From a virus, in IMG/VR virus record IMGVR_UViG_3300023202_000068, positions 32,001 through 96,000 of that record: DNA of 64,000 nt; one strand, given 5' to 3'. Every line of letters starts with the position of its first letter. Within the stretch, counting starts at the first letter, position 1. Shown here in pieces: positions 21,748-62,750 of this stretch. Both the position numbers and the translations under genes were made by a program. The notes beneath the pieces are model-generated. The model did no database searches and was not told the DNA's origin. It saw only the letters and a list, made by a program, of their open reading frames with translations.

Positions 21748-22324
21748 CTCTACCCTCTTCAGCTAATCGTCTCTTCCTAAGTTCCTTTACATACTCAACA
21801 TCTGCATCGACATTTGATGACTCTTCTTGTTTTTTAATCTCAGTGTAAAACTTTCTTATTCGTTTTGTTCTCACATCTGTAGCACGCATCTCACCAAGTT
21901 GTTCTGTAACAATCGAGGATACGAGTGGGTCAGTTATAACATACAGACCTGGTTGTCTACCAACTTGTTTTTCCTGAACCTTCCAAAAACCATCGTCTCT
22001 CATCTTTCTCATAAAGGTAGAGTAGGCCCTGCTGTGAATAGTATTAGTACCGTGGTTCTGATCTTCCTCTAGCAAAACCTCAAAAGCACGTCTGGATAAA
22101 CCGAAAGCGTCATTCTCTTGTGTAACAATTGCATTAACCAATGTAGCAAAATAATTATCGTAACCTCCACCTTTCTCCAAAAGCATGGTAATTAACTTAT
22201 TAGCACGAGAGTTTTCTATGTTCTCAAGCTTTGTGGTCCTGTAGAGCATGACGTGATCGTCATACCCAAAGTATCTGGCAGCAAATTCTCTTAACTCTTC
22301 ATCGTCTATCAACACGTCCTCCAT
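21740..22324 (-). CDS. putative winged-helix DNA-binding protein (candidate replication initiator)
   Basis: Helix AYSTFMRKMRDDGFW followed by a wing-like KVQEKQVGRQPGLYVI; adjacent to the repeat array. Start taken at MEDVL. Confidence 0.4.
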   Translation of the reverse strand: MEDVLIDDEELREFAARYFGYDDHVMLYRTTKLENIENSRANKLITMLLEKGGGYDNYFATLVNAIVTQENDAFGLSRRAFEVLLEEDQNHGTNTIHSRAYSTFMRKMRDDGFWKVQEKQVGRQPGLYVITDPLVSSIVTEQLGEMRATDVRTKRIRKFYTEIKKQEESSNVDADVEYVKELRKRRLAEEGRDE

Positions 22325-22351
22325 TGCTCTATTGGGGATAATACCACAGTT

Positions 22352-22454
22352 TACACCGCAAATACACCGCAAAAATTAAGAAAGTTAATAAACCTTGAGA
22401 TTACAAACACTTAAACCATTTTACACCGCAAATACACCGCAAATACACCGCAAA
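22352..22454. repeat. iteron-like 11-bp direct repeats TACACCGCAAA (2 + 3 copies)
   Basis: Copies at 22352, 22363, 22422, 22433 and 22444. Confidence 0.9.
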
Positions 22455-22471
22455 TTGAATTTCGCTGCCCC

Positions 22472-22507
22472 TAGGTTAGGTTAGTATATAGGTTAGGTTA
22501 GGTTAGT
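22472..22507. repeat. TAGGT pentamer repeats
   Basis: TAGGT-TAGGT-TAGT-ATA-TAGGT-TAGGT-TAGGT-TAGT. Confidence 0.85.
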
Positions 22508-22578
22508 AAAACAACCAAGCAGCTTTTTTTAAAGTAAAACCTTGTTTTGTGGTAAATAGAGAAGCAAAGGAGTTTGCT

Positions 22579-25259: not shown

Positions 25260-25475
25260 GCTCCTATGGACTTAACAGCATAGGCTAAGTTGTGTTCTTT
25301 CACAAGCCATACATTCTGAGCGTGTCTACAGGGCACTTTGAGCACCACCCAGATCATACGTGAGCTTCGGCAAAACGCATTTTCAGGGAAGGTGCATTCG
25401 TGCGTCTAAAATCAGCAATCATTTCAGCTATATACCAGTTTGCAAGGTAATGTAACAAAAAAATGTTACAAAGAG

Positions 25476-25523
25476 CTTGCATTGTCCATCCACCTGTGGT
25501 GTAATAATTACATAGGGAGGGAT
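25476..25523 (+). promoter_or_regulatory. early promoter/leader copy 1
   Basis: CTTGCA...TAATAAT..CATAGGGAGGGAT; preceded by inverted repeat TGTAACA-N6-TGTTACA. Confidence 0.6.
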
Positions 25524-25524
25524 T

Positions 25525-25701
25525 ATGAATTTCTACAACATCAAACTTACATTCTCAAACGGCGAAGTCACTACACTTAGAGTACACGGTATCTTCTTTA
25601 AGTCACACGATGCAGCTCTTGATGGTTTCCTATCTATGGTCCTAGAGGCTGGTATCCAAAAGTCTACAGCAGCAGATGGTACAGTGGTGGAGTTCTACTA
25701 A
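25525..25701 (+). CDS. 58-aa early protein (not in the ORF track)
   Basis: MNFYNIKLTFSNGEVTTLRVHG...VVEFY after AGGGAGG. Confidence 0.65.
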   Translation: MNFYNIKLTFSNGEVTTLRVHGIFFKSHDAALDGFLSMVLEAGIQKSTAADGTVVEFY

Positions 25702-25716
25702 TTATTTAAAATAGTT

Positions 25717-25761
25717 CTTGCAATTATTACAAACCTATGAGACTATTAATGTATAGGGAGG
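25717..25761 (+). promoter_or_regulatory. early promoter/leader copy 2
   Basis: CTTGCAATTATTACAA...TATTAAT..TATAGGGAGG. Confidence 0.75.
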
Positions 25762-25770
25762 AACAACAAT

Positions 25771-26037
25771 ATGGGAAGATCTAGAACGCCAAAATACAGA
25801 ATCGAATTAAGAGCTAGTAACATGGGTAGAACTTCTTTTTCTTATGAGAAGCAACCTGCTACTGTTGATGGACTTGTAGAATTTATAAAAGTTTGGGAGA
25901 AGTCTTTTCAGCCTGGTGGAGTTAACGAGCACTTCAACTTCCCATCACCAGTGACTGTATTTCAAGCTGAGATCGTCAACCAGAAGACCAATGAGACTGT
26001 TGTAGAGTTTAAGCTTCCAATGTTTCAGGAGATATAA
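25771..26037 (+). CDS. early hypothetical protein
   Basis: MGRSRTPKYRIE...; behind the repeated promoter. Confidence 0.7.
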   Translation: MGRSRTPKYRIELRASNMGRTSFSYEKQPATVDGLVEFIKVWEKSFQPGGVNEHFNFPSPVTVFQAEIVNQKTNETVVEFKLPMFQEI

Positions 26038-26306
26038 TGACATACATGTACGAAATATCACAAGACCTAGACGTTAGCTACCAAGATCAAGGTCCATGGA
26101 GATCGTATCAGCTAGAAGCCATGGGTGACAGTTTTGAGCAATTGTGGGATAATGCATTTGTATACGAGCTTGATAAAGATGGTGGGGAGCTAAACTTGTA
26201 CCACGCTATGGAAGCTCCAAAGCAAGTGTTTGAGAAGGTAGAAGAGATAATGAATGGATATGTACACGATCACAGAGCAGCAGCGGTTGTTGCTGGGGAG
26301 GACTAA
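26037..26306 (+). CDS. early hypothetical protein
   Basis: TAATG coupling to the upstream gene. Confidence 0.6.
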   Translation: MTYMYEISQDLDVSYQDQGPWRSYQLEAMGDSFEQLWDNAFVYELDKDGGELNLYHAMEAPKQVFEKVEEIMNGYVHDHRAAAVVAGED

Positions 26307-26545
26307 AATGAAAGCAATATACAGAGTTGAGATACCAGGGAAAGACCCACAATGGATGTCTAAGGACGTGAACGGGAGCTACAGCCTAGTTACCAAGATG
26401 AGCGTGGCTGCCCCTATAGAAGAACATGAGCACTTGATTATTATGGACTTCCTTCCTGAGGGCACTACAGCCTATGTGGAGCAATCTAGCATTCAGCTCG
26501 AAATTAAGGACATTTGGAGAGCTATGTAATTTTTTTAAAAAAAGA

Positions 26546-26590
26546 CTTGCAATTATTACAAGCCTATGAGATATTAGTTGTATAGGGAGG
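26546..26590 (+). promoter_or_regulatory. early promoter/leader copy 3
   Basis: CTTGCAATTATTACAA...TATTAGT..TATAGGGAGG. Confidence 0.75.
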
Positions 26591-26827
26591 GACATATGAA
26601 ACTAACAGTCTTACAAAAACACGCACTAGAATATATCGCAGGTCTTCAGGTTACTGGCACTCCGCAACGCAGAGTGGTTGTAAACATCTACAAAAAAGGT
26701 CTCATTACATCTGACCGCAAGCTCACAGCCAAAGGAGCTGAGCTTCTTGGTCTTCAGGTTAGCGAGGAAGTGGTTTACGTAAACTTCAAGTCAAGAAGAA
26801 AGGTGGCGTAAAAAATATAAAATAATG

Positions 26828-26872
26828 CTTGCAATTATTACAAAGCTTTAGTATTATTTATATATAGGGAGG
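26828..26872 (+). promoter_or_regulatory. early promoter/leader copy 4
   Basis: CTTGCAATTATTACAA...TATTAT..TATAGGGAGG. Confidence 0.75.
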
Positions 26873-45564: not shown

Positions 45565-46071
45565 ATGATGACCTATATGATAATAGGGATGCTGATGGTC
45601 GCAGCGTTTCGAATATTCGACAAAAAGACCGTTAGAGTTGAGTGGCAGGCTATTGGAGGCTTTCTTGGCTTCATGGCTGTTGTAACTTTTTTAAGAATAT
45701 CAATGTACGATTACGTACACATGGCAGACCCAGACTTTATACCAAAAATGCACGGGGCTTTACTTGAAATGCCCAAGATCATGTTTTCACTGGTTTGGTG
45801 GGAGGATGGTTTTTACGTACTCCCTATTGTATTGGCGTTTAGATATCTGCCAAAGAAGATTGCTATAGCTTTCGCAATTTTTATGTCTGCTTGGTTTGGT
45901 ACAGGACACCTTTACCAAGGTATCAGTGGTGTATTTATTACATCATTATATCCATACTTAGTAGCCTATCGCTTTGGAAAGAAGTATGGTTACGGCACGG
46001 TTATGGTCGGTCACGTTCTTTATGACTATATTACATACTACACAGTTATCGTTGCACCACTCTTGCTTTAG
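45565..46071 (+). CDS. CPBP/Abi family intramembrane glutamic protease
   Basis: Multi-TM; WEDGFY, FGTGHLYQG, GHVLYD. Confidence 0.75.
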   Translation: MMTYMIIGMLMVAAFRIFDKKTVRVEWQAIGGFLGFMAVVTFLRISMYDYVHMADPDFIPKMHGALLEMPKIMFSLVWWEDGFYVLPIVLAFRYLPKKIAIAFAIFMSAWFGTGHLYQGISGVFITSLYPYLVAYRFGKKYGYGTVMVGHVLYDYITYYTVIVAPLLL

Positions 46072-46080
46072 TGGTATATT
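46052..46080 (+). promoter_or_regulatory. sigma70-type promoter for sRNA-A
   Basis: TTGCAC-17 bp-TATATT with extended -10 TG. Confidence 0.6.
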
Positions 46081-46086
46081 ATAAAT

Positions 46087-46156
46087 AAGACTGGCTTTTT
46101 TCATCTAGTCTCCTTTGGGTAACCCCTGTCGATTTAATGTTGACAGGGGTTTTTTT
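46087..46156 (+). ncRNA. candidate anti-RBS small RNA A
   Basis: Promoter, then UUUUUUCAUCUAGUCUCCUUUG, then terminator; no plus-strand ORF. Confidence 0.5.
46121..46156 (+). terminator. intrinsic terminator whose 3' arm contains the -35 of the next promoter
   Basis: AACCCCTGTCGA-N7-TTGACAGGGGTT-TTTTT; TTGACA (46140)-17 bp-TACGAT (46163). Confidence 0.8.
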
Positions 46157-46217
46157 ATTAGATACGATAGAAATGATGGTATCTAACAATAACAAACATA
46201 TATAAAGGAGAAATTAT

Positions 46218-47594: not shown

Positions 47595-47667
47595 GATGCT
47601 GTAGCTCAGTTGGTAGAGCAATGGATTGATAAACCATAGGACGGGGGTTCAAGTCCCTCCAGCATTG
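47595..47667 (+). tRNA. tRNA-Ile(GAT)
   Basis: GATGCTG/CAGCATT acceptor; GCTC-AGTTGGTA-GAGC D arm; TTGATAA anticodon loop; GGGGG-TTCAAGT-CCCTC T arm; CCA not encoded. Confidence 0.85.
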
Positions 47668-53635: not shown

Positions 53636-54488
53636 GATACTATAAGTGCGTAAACTGTGGATATCGTGGGGATTTTAAGTTTTATAGGTCACGAAATGTA
53701 AAATGTCAAAAGTGTGAATACGATCTATTGACAGAGTACGAAGAAGATGAGTATAATGAGTGGATGAGTAAGTTTGGACAATACCAGGAGGAGCCGGATG
53801 GGAAAAGTAAAGGAACAACTGATAAATGAAGACGACTGGACTGATGCAATTCGCTATGCGCTAGGTTCACCTGGTTTTATTACTGATCTTGGAGCGGAAG
53901 AAGTAGGGGATTACAAAATACAAAGCCTTAGTGAACAAATTATGACAAGCAATAGCTGCTTTCACGTTTGGGAGGAGAGGCACTTGTTTACATCAAGCTA
54001 TGTGGCGTGTAAAAAATGCGGAGAGGAAAAAAATGCAGGGAATTAAGATTAATATGGACGAGCTTAAAATGGGTCTAACAGAGCTGATCTCTAGATGTAC
54101 TAGACAAGATAAGCTTGAGCTTAAAATTGACGGAAGAGACTTGACCTTGTCTGCTATCGACGATGACGACAATATTGTTGAGGTAGTTTTAAACCATGAA
54201 GGTAACATGCAGGCTAAGTTTAGACACACAGAGAGACTAATGAGTATGAAGAAGAAGGGTTCACTATGAGCGGTTCACACTTAATACCAGACGATGATGT
54301 TATTATAACACATGCCTTAGGAGAGTCTAATACCGCTATTAGAGTAGAGGGACTGAAGCAGTGGGTGAAAAACCTACACGTTATCGGTGAAACCCAGGCA
54401 TACCTGAAAGCGCAAGATAAAGAAACCGGAGAAATATTTTTAATTAAACAGGTTGTAGAAATTAAAACACCTGTGGTAGAATAAGTTA

Positions 54489-54557
54489 AGTCCACCCAGT
54501 GTCGCAAGGCACATCCCTCCCTGTATGTGGGTGAGCGAAAGCTCACCTGCATTTTTT
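54489..54557 (+). ncRNA. candidate anti-RBS small RNA B
   Basis: Extended -10 TGGTAGAAT (54474-82); GUGUC-GCAA-GGCAC hairpin; AUCCCUCCCUGU linker; GAAA-loop terminator. Confidence 0.55.
54525..54557 (+). terminator. intrinsic terminator
   Basis: ATGTGGGTGAGC-GAAA-GCTCACCTGCAT-TTTTT. Confidence 0.8.
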
Positions 54558-54598
54558 ATAGAGGACTTAGGGGTGGTAAGGGAAGGATTTGAAAACTT

Positions 54599-55045
54599 AT
54601 GAACAACCCAAATTTTAAAATTGGTGATGTGGTTGATTACAAGGGAAGCACGGGAGCAATTACCCAGCTAGACGTGATCTGTAAAGACCAGAAGCTTGGC
54701 GCTACGGTAGAGTGGCAAGCTAACCTAACACCTCCACAATCCAATGTTCCATATGAGGACCTAGTTTTTGTTGGCTCTCCTGTAACCCTACAGAACAGTA
54801 ATAGTAAAGTTTACAAGCCTGGTCAGGACCCTTGGACCTATTCTCAAGCTTACAGTAACACTAAGACATCGAATATAAACACTCACTGCCCCGTATGTTC
54901 TTCAGAGTGGGAGGATAGAACACTGGTTTATTCAAGTTTTAAGTACTGTCCCAAATGTAAAGAAGAAAAAGATTTTTTGGTAGAACAAGCTGGTGTTGTA
55001 GGTATCGATGGTGGTAAAAACGTATATTCAGCAGGAGCTGACTAA
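54599..55045 (+). CDS. hypothetical protein with SH3-like N-terminus and Zn ribbon
   Basis: FKIGDVVDY; CPVC...CPKC. Confidence 0.55.
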   Translation: MNNPNFKIGDVVDYKGSTGAITQLDVICKDQKLGATVEWQANLTPPQSNVPYEDLVFVGSPVTLQNSNSKVYKPGQDPWTYSQAYSNTKTSNINTHCPVCSSEWEDRTLVYSSFKYCPKCKEEKDFLVEQAGVVGIDGGKNVYSAGAD

Positions 55046-61372: not shown

Positions 61373-62143
61373 TTGATCATTATAGGCGATGTGCATGGAA
61401 ATTTTAAAACTATGGAAGCTTTGCTCCAAAAAATTCCAACTGAGGAATTAAAAAAGGGAGTGGTGTTCGTAGGAGATCTTATTGATCGTGGACCCATGTC
61501 TGCTGATGTGGTTGAGTTTGTAAGGACTACAGACTGGGCTCAAACTGTGCGTGGAAATCACGAGCAAATGATGATTGACGAGGGTTTAAAAGAAGCCGCG
61601 CATTTTATGAGAAACGGTACTTTCAATATGCATGTTAATCAATACGGTGTTTACAGTAGCTTGTGGTTGGTAAATGGCGGCAAGGAAACCCTAGAGTCTT
61701 ATGTCGATATTGATGAAGATACAAAAAGACCTGTATTTGATATGGATGTTTTTATAGACCACACTGAGTGGTTAAAAAACTTACCTCTTTACTTGGAGTT
61801 TAAAGATGTTAAAAATGACAAAGGAGAGCACCTACTGGTCTCTCATTCTTCTGCTGGCACAGTGTGGAAGTGGAGCCCTGAAAGACGCAAAACAAACGCT
61901 AAGCAATTTGCTGCTCACCTTACTTGGGGTAGGCCTCGTCAGTTCAAGCCAATTGATAATATTTACAATGTGTTTGGGCATACTCCTGTTCCAAACGGTC
62001 CTAGACTTAAAAGCTTCTATGCAAATGTAGACACCGGAGCTTTTTATAAAGAACAATCGGGATATTTTAAGTTGACAGCTTTACAATTTCCTGAGATGAT
62101 AGTCTACGAACAGGAAAATATAGATGATATTAGATACAGATAA
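61373..62143 (+). CDS. Ser/Thr protein phosphatase (lambda NinI/PrpA-like)
   Basis: GDVHG, GDLIDRGP, RGNHE, FGHTP, VDTGA. Confidence 0.9.
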   Translation: MIIIGDVHGNFKTMEALLQKIPTEELKKGVVFVGDLIDRGPMSADVVEFVRTTDWAQTVRGNHEQMMIDEGLKEAAHFMRNGTFNMHVNQYGVYSSLWLVNGGKETLESYVDIDEDTKRPVFDMDVFIDHTEWLKNLPLYLEFKDVKNDKGEHLLVSHSSAGTVWKWSPERRKTNAKQFAAHLTWGRPRQFKPIDNIYNVFGHTPVPNGPRLKSFYANVDTGAFYKEQSGYFKLTALQFPEMIVYEQENIDDIRYR

Positions 62144-62750
62144 AAAGACATTAGAGTTTCATGAGTTTGAGGTCAAGTTTAGACTTGACGAATCTAAACT
62201 TAATGATTGGAAGCAACTCATAAGAGATTATGCTAATTCCGACGGTAGTGGATATAAAGACTTTGTCTACGTTGATTCTGACGACATATATTTTACTCGT
62301 GAATCTACTTCCGAAGATGTTGATTATGAATTTATCAGATATCGCTTTTCAGATGGAGAAAAGCGTGCAGAACTTACAACAAAAAGAAAGTTGAAAGACA
62401 GTAACAATATTATTCGCAAAGAGCAGAACGTGCGAGTAGACAATAATGATAGGGAAACAATACATGAATTTGTCACGGATGGTCTTGGCTTCGATTATAA
62501 TTTTCGTATTACTAAGTATGTCCAAATTTATATTTTTAAGGACGCTACACTCCCTTTTTATACGGTTGTGGACGAAAATAAAAAGCGCGACACTTTTGTC
62601 GAAATTGAAGTCGATGAGAAACTTTTACACAGCATAACTGAAGAAGAAGCTTGGGCTATTATTAATAAGTACGAAAAGCTTCTAGAGCCTTTGGGGATTA
62701 CACCTAGAAACAGACTTCGTAAGTCTTTGTTTGAGATGTATAAGCGATAA
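62124..62750 (+). CDS. CYTH/triphosphate tunnel metalloenzyme
   Basis: EFEVKF (ExExK); DIYF; IRYR; FVEIE. Confidence 0.8.
   Translation: MILDTDKKTLEFHEFEVKFRLDESKLNDWKQLIRDYANSDGSGYKDFVYVDSDDIYFTRESTSEDVDYEFIRYRFSDGEKRAELTTKRKLKDSNNIIRKEQNVRVDNNDRETIHEFVTDGLGFDYNFRITKYVQIYIFKDATLPFYTVVDENKKRDTFVEIEVDEKLLHSITEEEAWAIINKYEKLLEPLGITPRNRLRKSLFEMYKR

Follow-up and report, generated by a model that had tools for sequence, protein, structure and literature searches.

Introduction

The Rsa class of small RNAs (sRNAs), which includes RsaE/RoxS, combines a 5' hairpin, an unpaired conserved UCCC motif and a terminator, and the UCCC motif has been proposed or shown to bind Shine-Dalgarno (SD) sites, blocking initiation (Geissmann et al., 2009, PMC2790875). 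LhrC of Listeria is a C-rich anti-SD sRNA with UCCC motifs (PMC4132741). Here we describe a conserved non-coding RNA module of ~69 nt at positions 54489-54557 of a 64,000-nt stretch of phage DNA, referred to as the window. The module comprises, from 5' to 3', a C-rich tail, a hairpin capped by a GNRA loop, an open linker of 12 nt and an intrinsic terminator. Its open C-rich linker likely works by pairing with G-rich ribosome-binding leaders. The window spans bases 32001-96000 of a 153.5-kb IMG/VR phage record, 96% complete, which we call G000.

Related designs occur within messages and in phages. In the icaR mRNA of Staphylococcus aureus, a UCCCCUG motif in the 3' untranslated region (3' UTR) pairs with the SD region of the same message. 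The c4 RNA of P1/P7 (Rfam RF01695) masks a ribosome site in trans and is processed from the operon under its control. To our knowledge, very few phage-encoded trans-acting RNAs have assigned targets, and how early protein synthesis ends has been worked out at the molecular level for few large virulent phages, among them T4 with its RegB protein. RegB is an endoribonuclease that inactivates early messages at GGAG motifs in ribosome-binding sites (PMC3014915). The Pseudomonas phages PAK_P3 and phiKZ have non-coding RNAs derived from 3' UTRs and without assigned targets; those of PAK_P3 are processed from the 3' UTRs and have no start site of their own (PMC10914365).

Structure and conservation of the element

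The element lies on the plus strand, in the 114-nt gap 3' of a 72-aa gene; this gap holds the tail, the hairpin, the linker and the terminator. The tail AGUCCACCCA (54489-54498) is unpaired both in the minimum free energy (MFE) fold and in the ensemble. Hairpin 1, GUGUC-GCAA-GGCAC (54499-54512), has a 5-bp stem and the GNRA tetraloop GCAA. The linker AUCCCUCCCUGU (54513-54524) has an unpaired probability of ~1 and contains two tandem UCCC motifs; its complement is AGGGAGGGAU, and it is the proposed seed. The terminator (54525-54557) consists of a 12-bp stem (54525-54552) with a GAAA loop, followed by a U run. It has the features expected of an intrinsic terminator (a G+C-rich hairpin, a U run, a position at the end of a unit and on the coding strand) and is the strongest terminator-like site within 47-64 kb. 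The MFE of the whole element is -26.2 kcal/mol (z = -4.5).

A preliminary description of this DNA, made from its letters, had listed an extended -10, the GCAA hairpin, the linker and the GAAA-loop terminator, and all of these are present at 54472-54557. It had also noted that CACCCA in the tail can pair with the terminator. That pairing exists, but not as a stable competing fold: the CACCCA/UGGGUG alternative reaches -9.2 vs -26.2 kcal/mol for the main fold, 17 kcal/mol worse, and is by these folding energies predicted to be at most a co-transcriptional intermediate. An Rfam scan at gathering and at permissive thresholds returned nothing relevant at the element, where the best local match is SorX (12.2 bits vs a gathering score of 46.6, E = 2.8); the sole match in the window above gathering is a tRNA at 47595-47667.

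Relatives of G000 were sought at two distances. Terminase homologues lead to a large family of metagenomic phages of 130-170 kb, from which four full genomes were compared (G001-G004; the G001 terminase is 64% identical). Closer relatives came from a metagenome scan whose query was an alignment of the 208-aa protein encoded by the conserved neighbouring gene 62124-62750. Two of these closer lineages, L097 and L173, carry the element; the early region of the L097 lineage (L190) was reached by contig walking. A word-based homologue search returned the flanking genes as singletons, which reflects its limited sensitivity, and tblastn against the metagenome loci gave homologues with 29-40% identity.

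Homologous copies stand at the syntenic position in L097 and L173, directly upstream of the homologue of the 148-aa gene that follows the element in G000 (L097 6917-7348, 35% identity; L173 882-1301, 29%). The L097 copy has the tail CCCCCA, the hairpin GAGGC-GAAA-GCCUC, the linker ACCCCUCCCUGU and a terminator. The L173 copy has the tail UCCCGACC, the hairpin GUAGAGAG-GUAA-CUCUCUAC, the linker AAUCCCUCCGAU and a terminator. All three copies thus have a C-rich 5' tail, a GNRA-capped hairpin 1, a terminator and, between hairpin and terminator, a linker that measures exactly 12 nt and contains the core CCCUCC. Identity between the flanking proteins is only 29-40%, yet the core is unchanged. Trained on the G000 and L097 copies, a covariance model finds the L173 copy as its third-best match in 1.29 Mb (E = 0.0015). 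A weak match of this model in L155 falls in the coding 3' end of a 59-aa gene and was rejected as a homologue.

In a model-based alignment of the three copies, helix 1 keeps 5/5 pairs, with three of the five changed on both sides. Helix 2, the terminator stem, has 9/12 pairs changed on both sides and is made of unrelated complementary sequence in L097 and L173. In total 12/17 pairs are changed on both sides, a count reached by 0/500 shuffles, and slid registers collapse. Covariation in relatives, which the preliminary description had named as a check, is therefore seen, with compensatory changes in the stems and a linker that is kept. Three sequences give modest support, though it is consistent. 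When 1.72 Mb of DNA from related phages was scanned for the combination of hairpin, open CCUCC-type motif and terminator, only these three loci came up. Because the stems covary while the sequence and length of the linker stay, the element is a selected RNA, and the single-stranded C-rich stretch is under selection, as an open sequence kept while the stems drift. We regard the element as a conserved structured RNA with near certainty, which confirms the original observation.

At the syntenic site in G001-G004 we found no gap, and both flanking genes are missing; in G001 the genes there are tightly packed, with no terminator. Searches of GenBank phages by megablast, blastn and tblastn with the locus and an 838-aa protein gave no match, with the DnaE polymerase as sole exception. 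Single-protein searches of IMG/VR for the locus, DNA patterns for the element or for the promoter-leader combination, and one metagenome pattern scan likewise found nothing. Three DNA sequencing runs, all from one study, contain the phage, with sequence identical to the window and zero variation; among the runs listed as containing it, none is of RNA.

Predicted pairing with early leaders

The preliminary description had placed the likely targets of the linker in four early leaders near 25512-26860. Leaders of the form ATAGGGAGG are indeed present at 25512, 25753, 26582 and 26864, and there is a fifth beyond the window (window-equivalent 106309), where it is on the minus strand and neighbours the DnaE polymerase gene. 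All five stand exactly 6 nt past the -10 hexamer of a TTGCAA/TTGCAT/TTGACT-N17 promoter. The motif is therefore read as the mRNA 5' end, and the early mRNAs probably begin with AUAGGGAGG, judging by promoter spacing; the opening letters of the early leader RNA would be AUAGGGAGGGAUUAUG. The AUAGGGAGG-type leader motif is the commonest upstream 9-mer in the G000 genome. As had been suspected, the SD site AGGGAGG is unusual here, being found in only 7 of the 226 called genes.

All four promoter-leader units in the window are on the plus strand and contain the proposed targets 1 to 4. P1 (25477-25520) combines TTGCAT-17-TGTAAT with the leader AUAGGGAGGGAU, and its duplex with the linker, at -21.0 kcal/mol, ranks first among 226 start regions. 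P2 (25718-25761) combines TTGCAA-17-GACTAT with AUAGGGAGGAAC; it ranks fourth with the linker and first in the full-length cofold. P3 (26547-26590, leader AUAGGGAGGGAC) ranks second and P4 (26829-26872, leader AUAGGGAGGCAA) sixth.

A pairing of 12-13 nt had been proposed for all four leaders. The linker is indeed predicted to form 12 contiguous bp (one of them G-U) with leader 1; leader 3 pairs over 11 bp, and the other leaders over 9 bp. Ranking against all phage start regions, another check named at the outset, places the early leaders at the top in both lineages where it was done. Scored against the 12-nt linker by itself, the five AUAGGGAGG leaders take ranks 1, 2, 4, 5 and 6 among the 226 start regions of G000, with the non-early genes 14158 and 24533 third and eighth. 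In full-length cofolds, which include unfolding costs, the window's four early genes and the fifth gene, beside DnaE, rank 1, 3, 7, 18 and 23. For the L097 linker, promoter-proximal early genes rank 1, 2, 4 and 7 among 151 start regions.

The early region L190 has TTGCAA-N17-TATAAT-N6 promoters like those of G000. Its leaders are AUAGGGAGGAAC, a long leader ending in UAGGGAGGAAAC, and AAGGGAGA; a promoter after DnaE in the same lineage gives the leader ACUGGGAGG. After DnaE in the distant relatives the leaders are (A)AUAGGAGG, UUAGGAGG or AGGAGU. GGGAGG early leaders were thus seen only in G000 and the L097 lineage, both of which carry the element, whereas the distant relatives have AGGAGG-type leaders and no element. 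This co-occurrence of GGGAGG leader and CCCUCC element comes from one clade and does not count as independent events.

In the 153.5 kb there are two copies of the 9-mer TCCCTCCCT; both fall in sense non-coding RNA, for which the expected number is 0.02. The complement of this 9-mer, AGGGAGGGA, is likewise present twice in the genome, in early leaders 1 and 3. The second UCCCUCCCU lies at genome 99423-99431 (L003 3423-3431; window-equivalent 67423, past the window end), within the 5' leader of a late gene (window-equivalent 67463) for a tail/baseplate protein of 949 aa, just behind the late-promoter box CAATCTTTA. It is kept as CCCUCCCUU in L173 (17973) and is absent from the homologous G001 leader. 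The late leader is essentially unstructured, and because its own SD is not complementary to UCCCUCCCU, masking in cis does not explain the motif there. A further C-rich sequence was seen at L190 1837-1890, where a 14-bp terminator hairpin with the 19-nt loop ACCUCCCCCCCUAUUUUUA directly precedes a TTGCAA promoter whose transcript starts with AUAGGGAGG; this loop may be another exposed anti-leader. The late-leader and L190 motifs fit a common partner for exposed CCCUCC motifs, on circumstantial evidence. What lies beyond chance at the element is its context and conservation, not the core 7-mer. Inverted repeats of 7 nt at the locus occur only at chance level.

Two other non-coding regions were noted near these promoters. 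A block upstream of P1 (window 25375-25420; L190 300-360; aaacgcatt.tcaggg.aggtgcattc...) is kept between G000 and the L097 lineage. The divergent gap at window 22313-22578, at the start of the rightward early array, contains repeated acaccgcaaat units and ggttaggtta repeats and adjoins the TGTGGTATTAT promoter of the leftward operon; an origin or an array of operators may lie here.

Putative transcription of the element

In G000 the element follows the 72-aa gene (54266-54484, plus strand), which has a codon-usage score of +0.29, typical for genes here, and a 40% identical homologue in L097. The gene is the last of a three-gene unit behind a perfect TTGACA-18-TATAAT site (53728-57). Its stop codon TAA (54482-54484) overlaps the -10 hexamer TAGAAT of a putative plus-strand promoter at 54453-54482, composed of TTGTAG (54453-58), an 18-nt spacer, TGTGG (54472-76) and TAGAAT (54477-82). 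The extended -10 TGTGGTAGAAT covers 54472-54482, and the predicted start is near A54489.

Of the six copies of TGTGGTAnnAT in the G000 genome, three are in divergent gaps, where all read TGTGGTATTAT and immediately precede genes. The 10-mer CACCTGTGGT is common to the 54472 site and early promoter P1. The consensus ttTGTGGTAt(a/t)AT stands upstream of dozens of genes in G001 and G003, mostly directly behind a terminator U run and with no clear -35. Because it fits this family consensus, the 54472 site is a credible promoter. Its order of promoter, terminator and gene is the reverse of the usual one in the family and suits a self-contained short transcription unit or an attenuator. Sites of the same type also occur at window 22343 and at genome 6507 and 27564, and the promoter-proximal early genes of G000 have TTGCAA -35 promoters instead. 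The module is probably made in two ways in G000: as the 3' end of the three-gene message and as a short transcript of its own from the extended -10 promoter.

The arrangement differs in the other two lineages, where a 59/60-aa gene sits between the 72-aa homologue and the element. We found no family-type promoter upstream of the L097 and L173 copies, so the element there is the 3' end of the mRNA of this HTH-like gene. A stand-alone sRNA gene therefore holds at best for G000. The 59/60-aa protein itself (...GRT.KAIRRKAEKL...), which is weakly HTH-like, is encoded at L097 6650-6829, L173 591-773 and L155 7123-7302 and is missing from G000.

The gene of the 148-aa CxxC...CxxC protein (54599-55045, plus strand, in G000) follows the element in each of the three lineages. 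Its G-rich leader (AUAGAGGACUUAGGGGUGGUAAGGGAAGGA..., 54558-54598, plus strand) can pair in cis with the tail and linker on read-through. There is no evident promoter between the terminator and gene 54599, and the five genes downstream therefore need read-through or the 54472 promoter. A 25-codon open reading frame (ORF) at 54525-54602 spans the terminator and overlaps the start of gene 54599 by ATGA; it has no SD site because the C-rich linker sits upstream of it. A candidate minus-strand gene (ORF 54220-54552/54507, SD AGGGAGGG) was judged spurious, with a codon score of -0.30 vs +0.29 for the overlapping plus-strand gene; the would-be SD of this ORF is the complement of the linker.

G000 encodes a contractile tail with sheath, terminase, portal, GroEL, ribonucleotide reductase and a DnaE-type polymerase, and its closest cultured relative is Myxococcus phage Mx1 (DnaE, 35% identity). 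Nearly all genes at ~22.5-66 kb of the window are on the plus strand. A second locus with the promoter-then-terminator order seen at 54472, here called 'sRNA-1', lies at window 46052-46157, where a good promoter of early type (TTGCAC-17-TATATT, with GTGG) is followed by a hairpin, UCUCCUUU and a strong terminator. In a crude test with its whole 5' part, the gene downstream of 'sRNA-1' was not among its top predicted partners.

Interpretation

The reading we favour, tentatively and at a little short of an even chance, is that the element is a UCCC-type anti-SD RNA aimed at the early AUAGGGAGG class. The exposed UCCCUCCCU would pair with G-rich SD leaders, and its best-matched partners would be the very short AUAGGGAGG(G) leaders that open the transcripts of TTGCAA-type early promoters. 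The duplex would cover the whole leader from +1 through the SD and exclude 30S subunits, and translation of promoter-proximal early genes would fall as the RNA accumulates. The element has the layout of the UCCC class, an unpaired conserved C-rich motif between a 5' hairpin and a terminator. Accumulation of the RNA, action in trans and repression are what we infer from this arrangement. The preliminary description had gone as far as a trans-acting sRNA that shuts off the early class. The structured RNA stands, and is conserved; the early leaders are the best predicted partners in two lineages; a promoter of its own is not a feature of the copies in the relatives.

A wider version of this reading, which we consider possible and hold more loosely, is that the clade times expression partly by RNA-RNA pairing, as an RNA counterpart of T4 RegB. 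The early tag AUAGGGAGG(G) would be read by UCCCUCCCU elements on later or accumulating RNAs. The readers would be the 69-nt RNA at 54489-54557, the leader of the late baseplate/tail operon (genome 99423) and maybe the L190 terminator loop, and their joint effect would be to end translation of the promoter-proximal early genes.

Several observations weigh against an RNA dedicated to the early leaders. Some concern the specificity of the pairing. Any CCUCC-containing RNA pairs with strong SD sites. Seed energy correlates with generic anti-SD energy (r = 0.63), so part of the ranking signal is simply that the early leaders are the G-richest ribosome sites. The core 7-mer CCTCCCT is at chance level on the plus strand (3 observed vs 3.2 expected). 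The leader of the gene directly downstream of the element ranks 2 among 226 natural leaders for pairing with tail and linker.

Others concern evolution. The AUAGG(G)AG leader is a family-wide promoter-leader cassette that is also present in relatives without any anti-leader, and its conservation therefore needs no such RNA. We found no sense non-coding complement of the AUAGGAGA-type leaders in G001-G004. Between G000 and L097 the linker and leader cores are both unchanged; because they are conserved together and not changed together, they give no compensatory proof of intermolecular pairing. The L173 linker differs from that of G000 (UCCCUCCGAU) and keeps only UCCCUCC; on the pairing model, early leaders of the L173 lineage would be expected to fit UCCCUCCGAU, for example as AUCGGAGGGA. 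The remaining points concern transcription. The -35 of the putative promoter is weak (TTGTAG, 3/6 matches, 18-nt spacer), the copies in L097 and L173 lack a promoter of the family type, and if the G000 promoter is of the early class, the RNA would be made simultaneously with its targets.

Among the alternatives, the best placed is still unlikely. On this view an operon simply ends here in an ordinary terminator with a hairpin for protection, and the C-rich linker is kept for another purpose, for example protein binding, processing or termination efficiency. The element does end a transcription unit in all three lineages, its L097 and L173 copies show no promoter of their own, covariation is expected of terminators, and the core 7-mer has its chance frequency. 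Yet what stands before other terminators of the family is A-rich sequence and not a GNRA hairpin with a fixed 12-nt C-rich spacer, and here the sequence and length of that spacer are kept while both stems have been replaced. This explanation also leaves aside that the same 9-mer recurs in a conserved late 5' leader and that the exact complement of the linker is the signature of the early leaders.

Control in cis of the 148-aa gene is improbable to much the same degree. Read-through would let the tail and linker mask the G-rich leader, and the terminator would be an attenuator or a timing block relieved later. The element precedes the 148-aa homologue in all three lineages, and the read-through RNA forms nested long-range helices with a gain of -15.3 kcal/mol and pair probability near 1; the downstream leader also has the high rank given above. 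G000 and L097 have no promoter between the terminator and the gene, and both have UAGGGA and AUAGAGGA behind the U run. However, 26% of dinucleotide shuffles of the right flank pair equally well, which makes its composition (G-richness) unusual and not its arrangement. The antiterminator fold is too weak for an attenuator, at -9.2 vs -26.2 kcal/mol, and in trans the downstream start region ranks only 49/226 in the full-length cofold. In L173, moreover, a consensus TGTGGTATTAT promoter stands behind the terminator and drives the 148-aa homologue, with a leader, UAGUAUGGAG, that is not G-rich; this argues against a conserved role as leader of the gene. The second conserved UCCCUCCCU, in the late leader, is also left unexplained. 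The cis and trans models are not exclusive: the terminated RNA would expose the seed, and the read-through RNA would hide both the seed and the downstream ribosome site.

An anti-SD RNA with other targets has a rather small chance of being correct. These could be host mRNAs, the GGGAGG phage genes 14158 and 24533, or strong ribosome sites in general, for which the RNA would be a competitor. The core CCCUCC includes the universal anti-SD pentamer CCUCC, the same core is nearly all that the L173 linker retains (UCCCUCC), and the two non-early genes score third and eighth. Against this, the UGU/AU extension of the linker fits the AUA...GAU of the early leaders specifically, giving the 12 contiguous bp, and early leaders head the ranking in two lineages. 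Finally, there is a very improbable reading at the DNA level, in which a phage regulator would bind AGGGAGGGA/TCCCTCCCT as a double-stranded site near transcription starts, whichever way round the site lies. The four copies of the 9-mer are indeed all non-coding and within ~35 bp of a putative start. However, the complete 9-mer is missing from 3/5 early leaders, the sites vary in orientation and in their distance from the start, and the 54515 site is embedded in an RNA structure with covarying stems, which points to selection at the RNA level.

Comparison with known systems

At this locus a compact conserved RNA with a defined seed of 12 nt can be set against five candidate leaders that start at +1 of early promoters, and the favoured anti-SD reading can be tested with synthetic RNAs, without phage culture. 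If it is true, phages have adopted the C-rich anti-SD design of Gram-positive sRNAs for their own temporal classes, and a private SD tag together with its exposed complement is a signature for finding such circuits in metagenomic phages.

The c4 RNA and the PAK_P3 RNAs are, like this element, phage-encoded small RNAs, and an origin in a 3' UTR may also hold for the L097 and L173 copies; neither has homology to the element. The likeness to Rsa and LhrC is one of design: small size, a 5' hairpin, a Rho-independent terminator and an unpaired conserved UCCC, with two tandem UCCC motifs in the phage linker. Unlike them, the element is encoded by a virulent-looking phage, has no similarity to Rfam at the level of sequence or covariance models, and has the phage's own early leaders as predicted targets.

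With icaR the element shares a C-rich anti-SD motif (here ...UCCCUG...) in the untranslated 3' part of a message, immediately ahead of the terminator; in L097 and L173 this is clearly a 3' UTR. The difference is that SD sites of the same message are poor partners, and the best partners belong to other transcripts at a distance of ~28 kb. The best duplexes in G000 do not include the start regions of genes 53798 and 54266, and 54033 appears only weakly in the list of cis folds; those in L097 do not include the 59-aa gene. The likeness to T4 RegB lies in the proposed logic, a class-specific shut-off of early messages through a GGAG-type motif. RegB is a protein nuclease aided by ribosomal protein S1, whereas the phage element would be a pairing RNA, with no cleavage implied.

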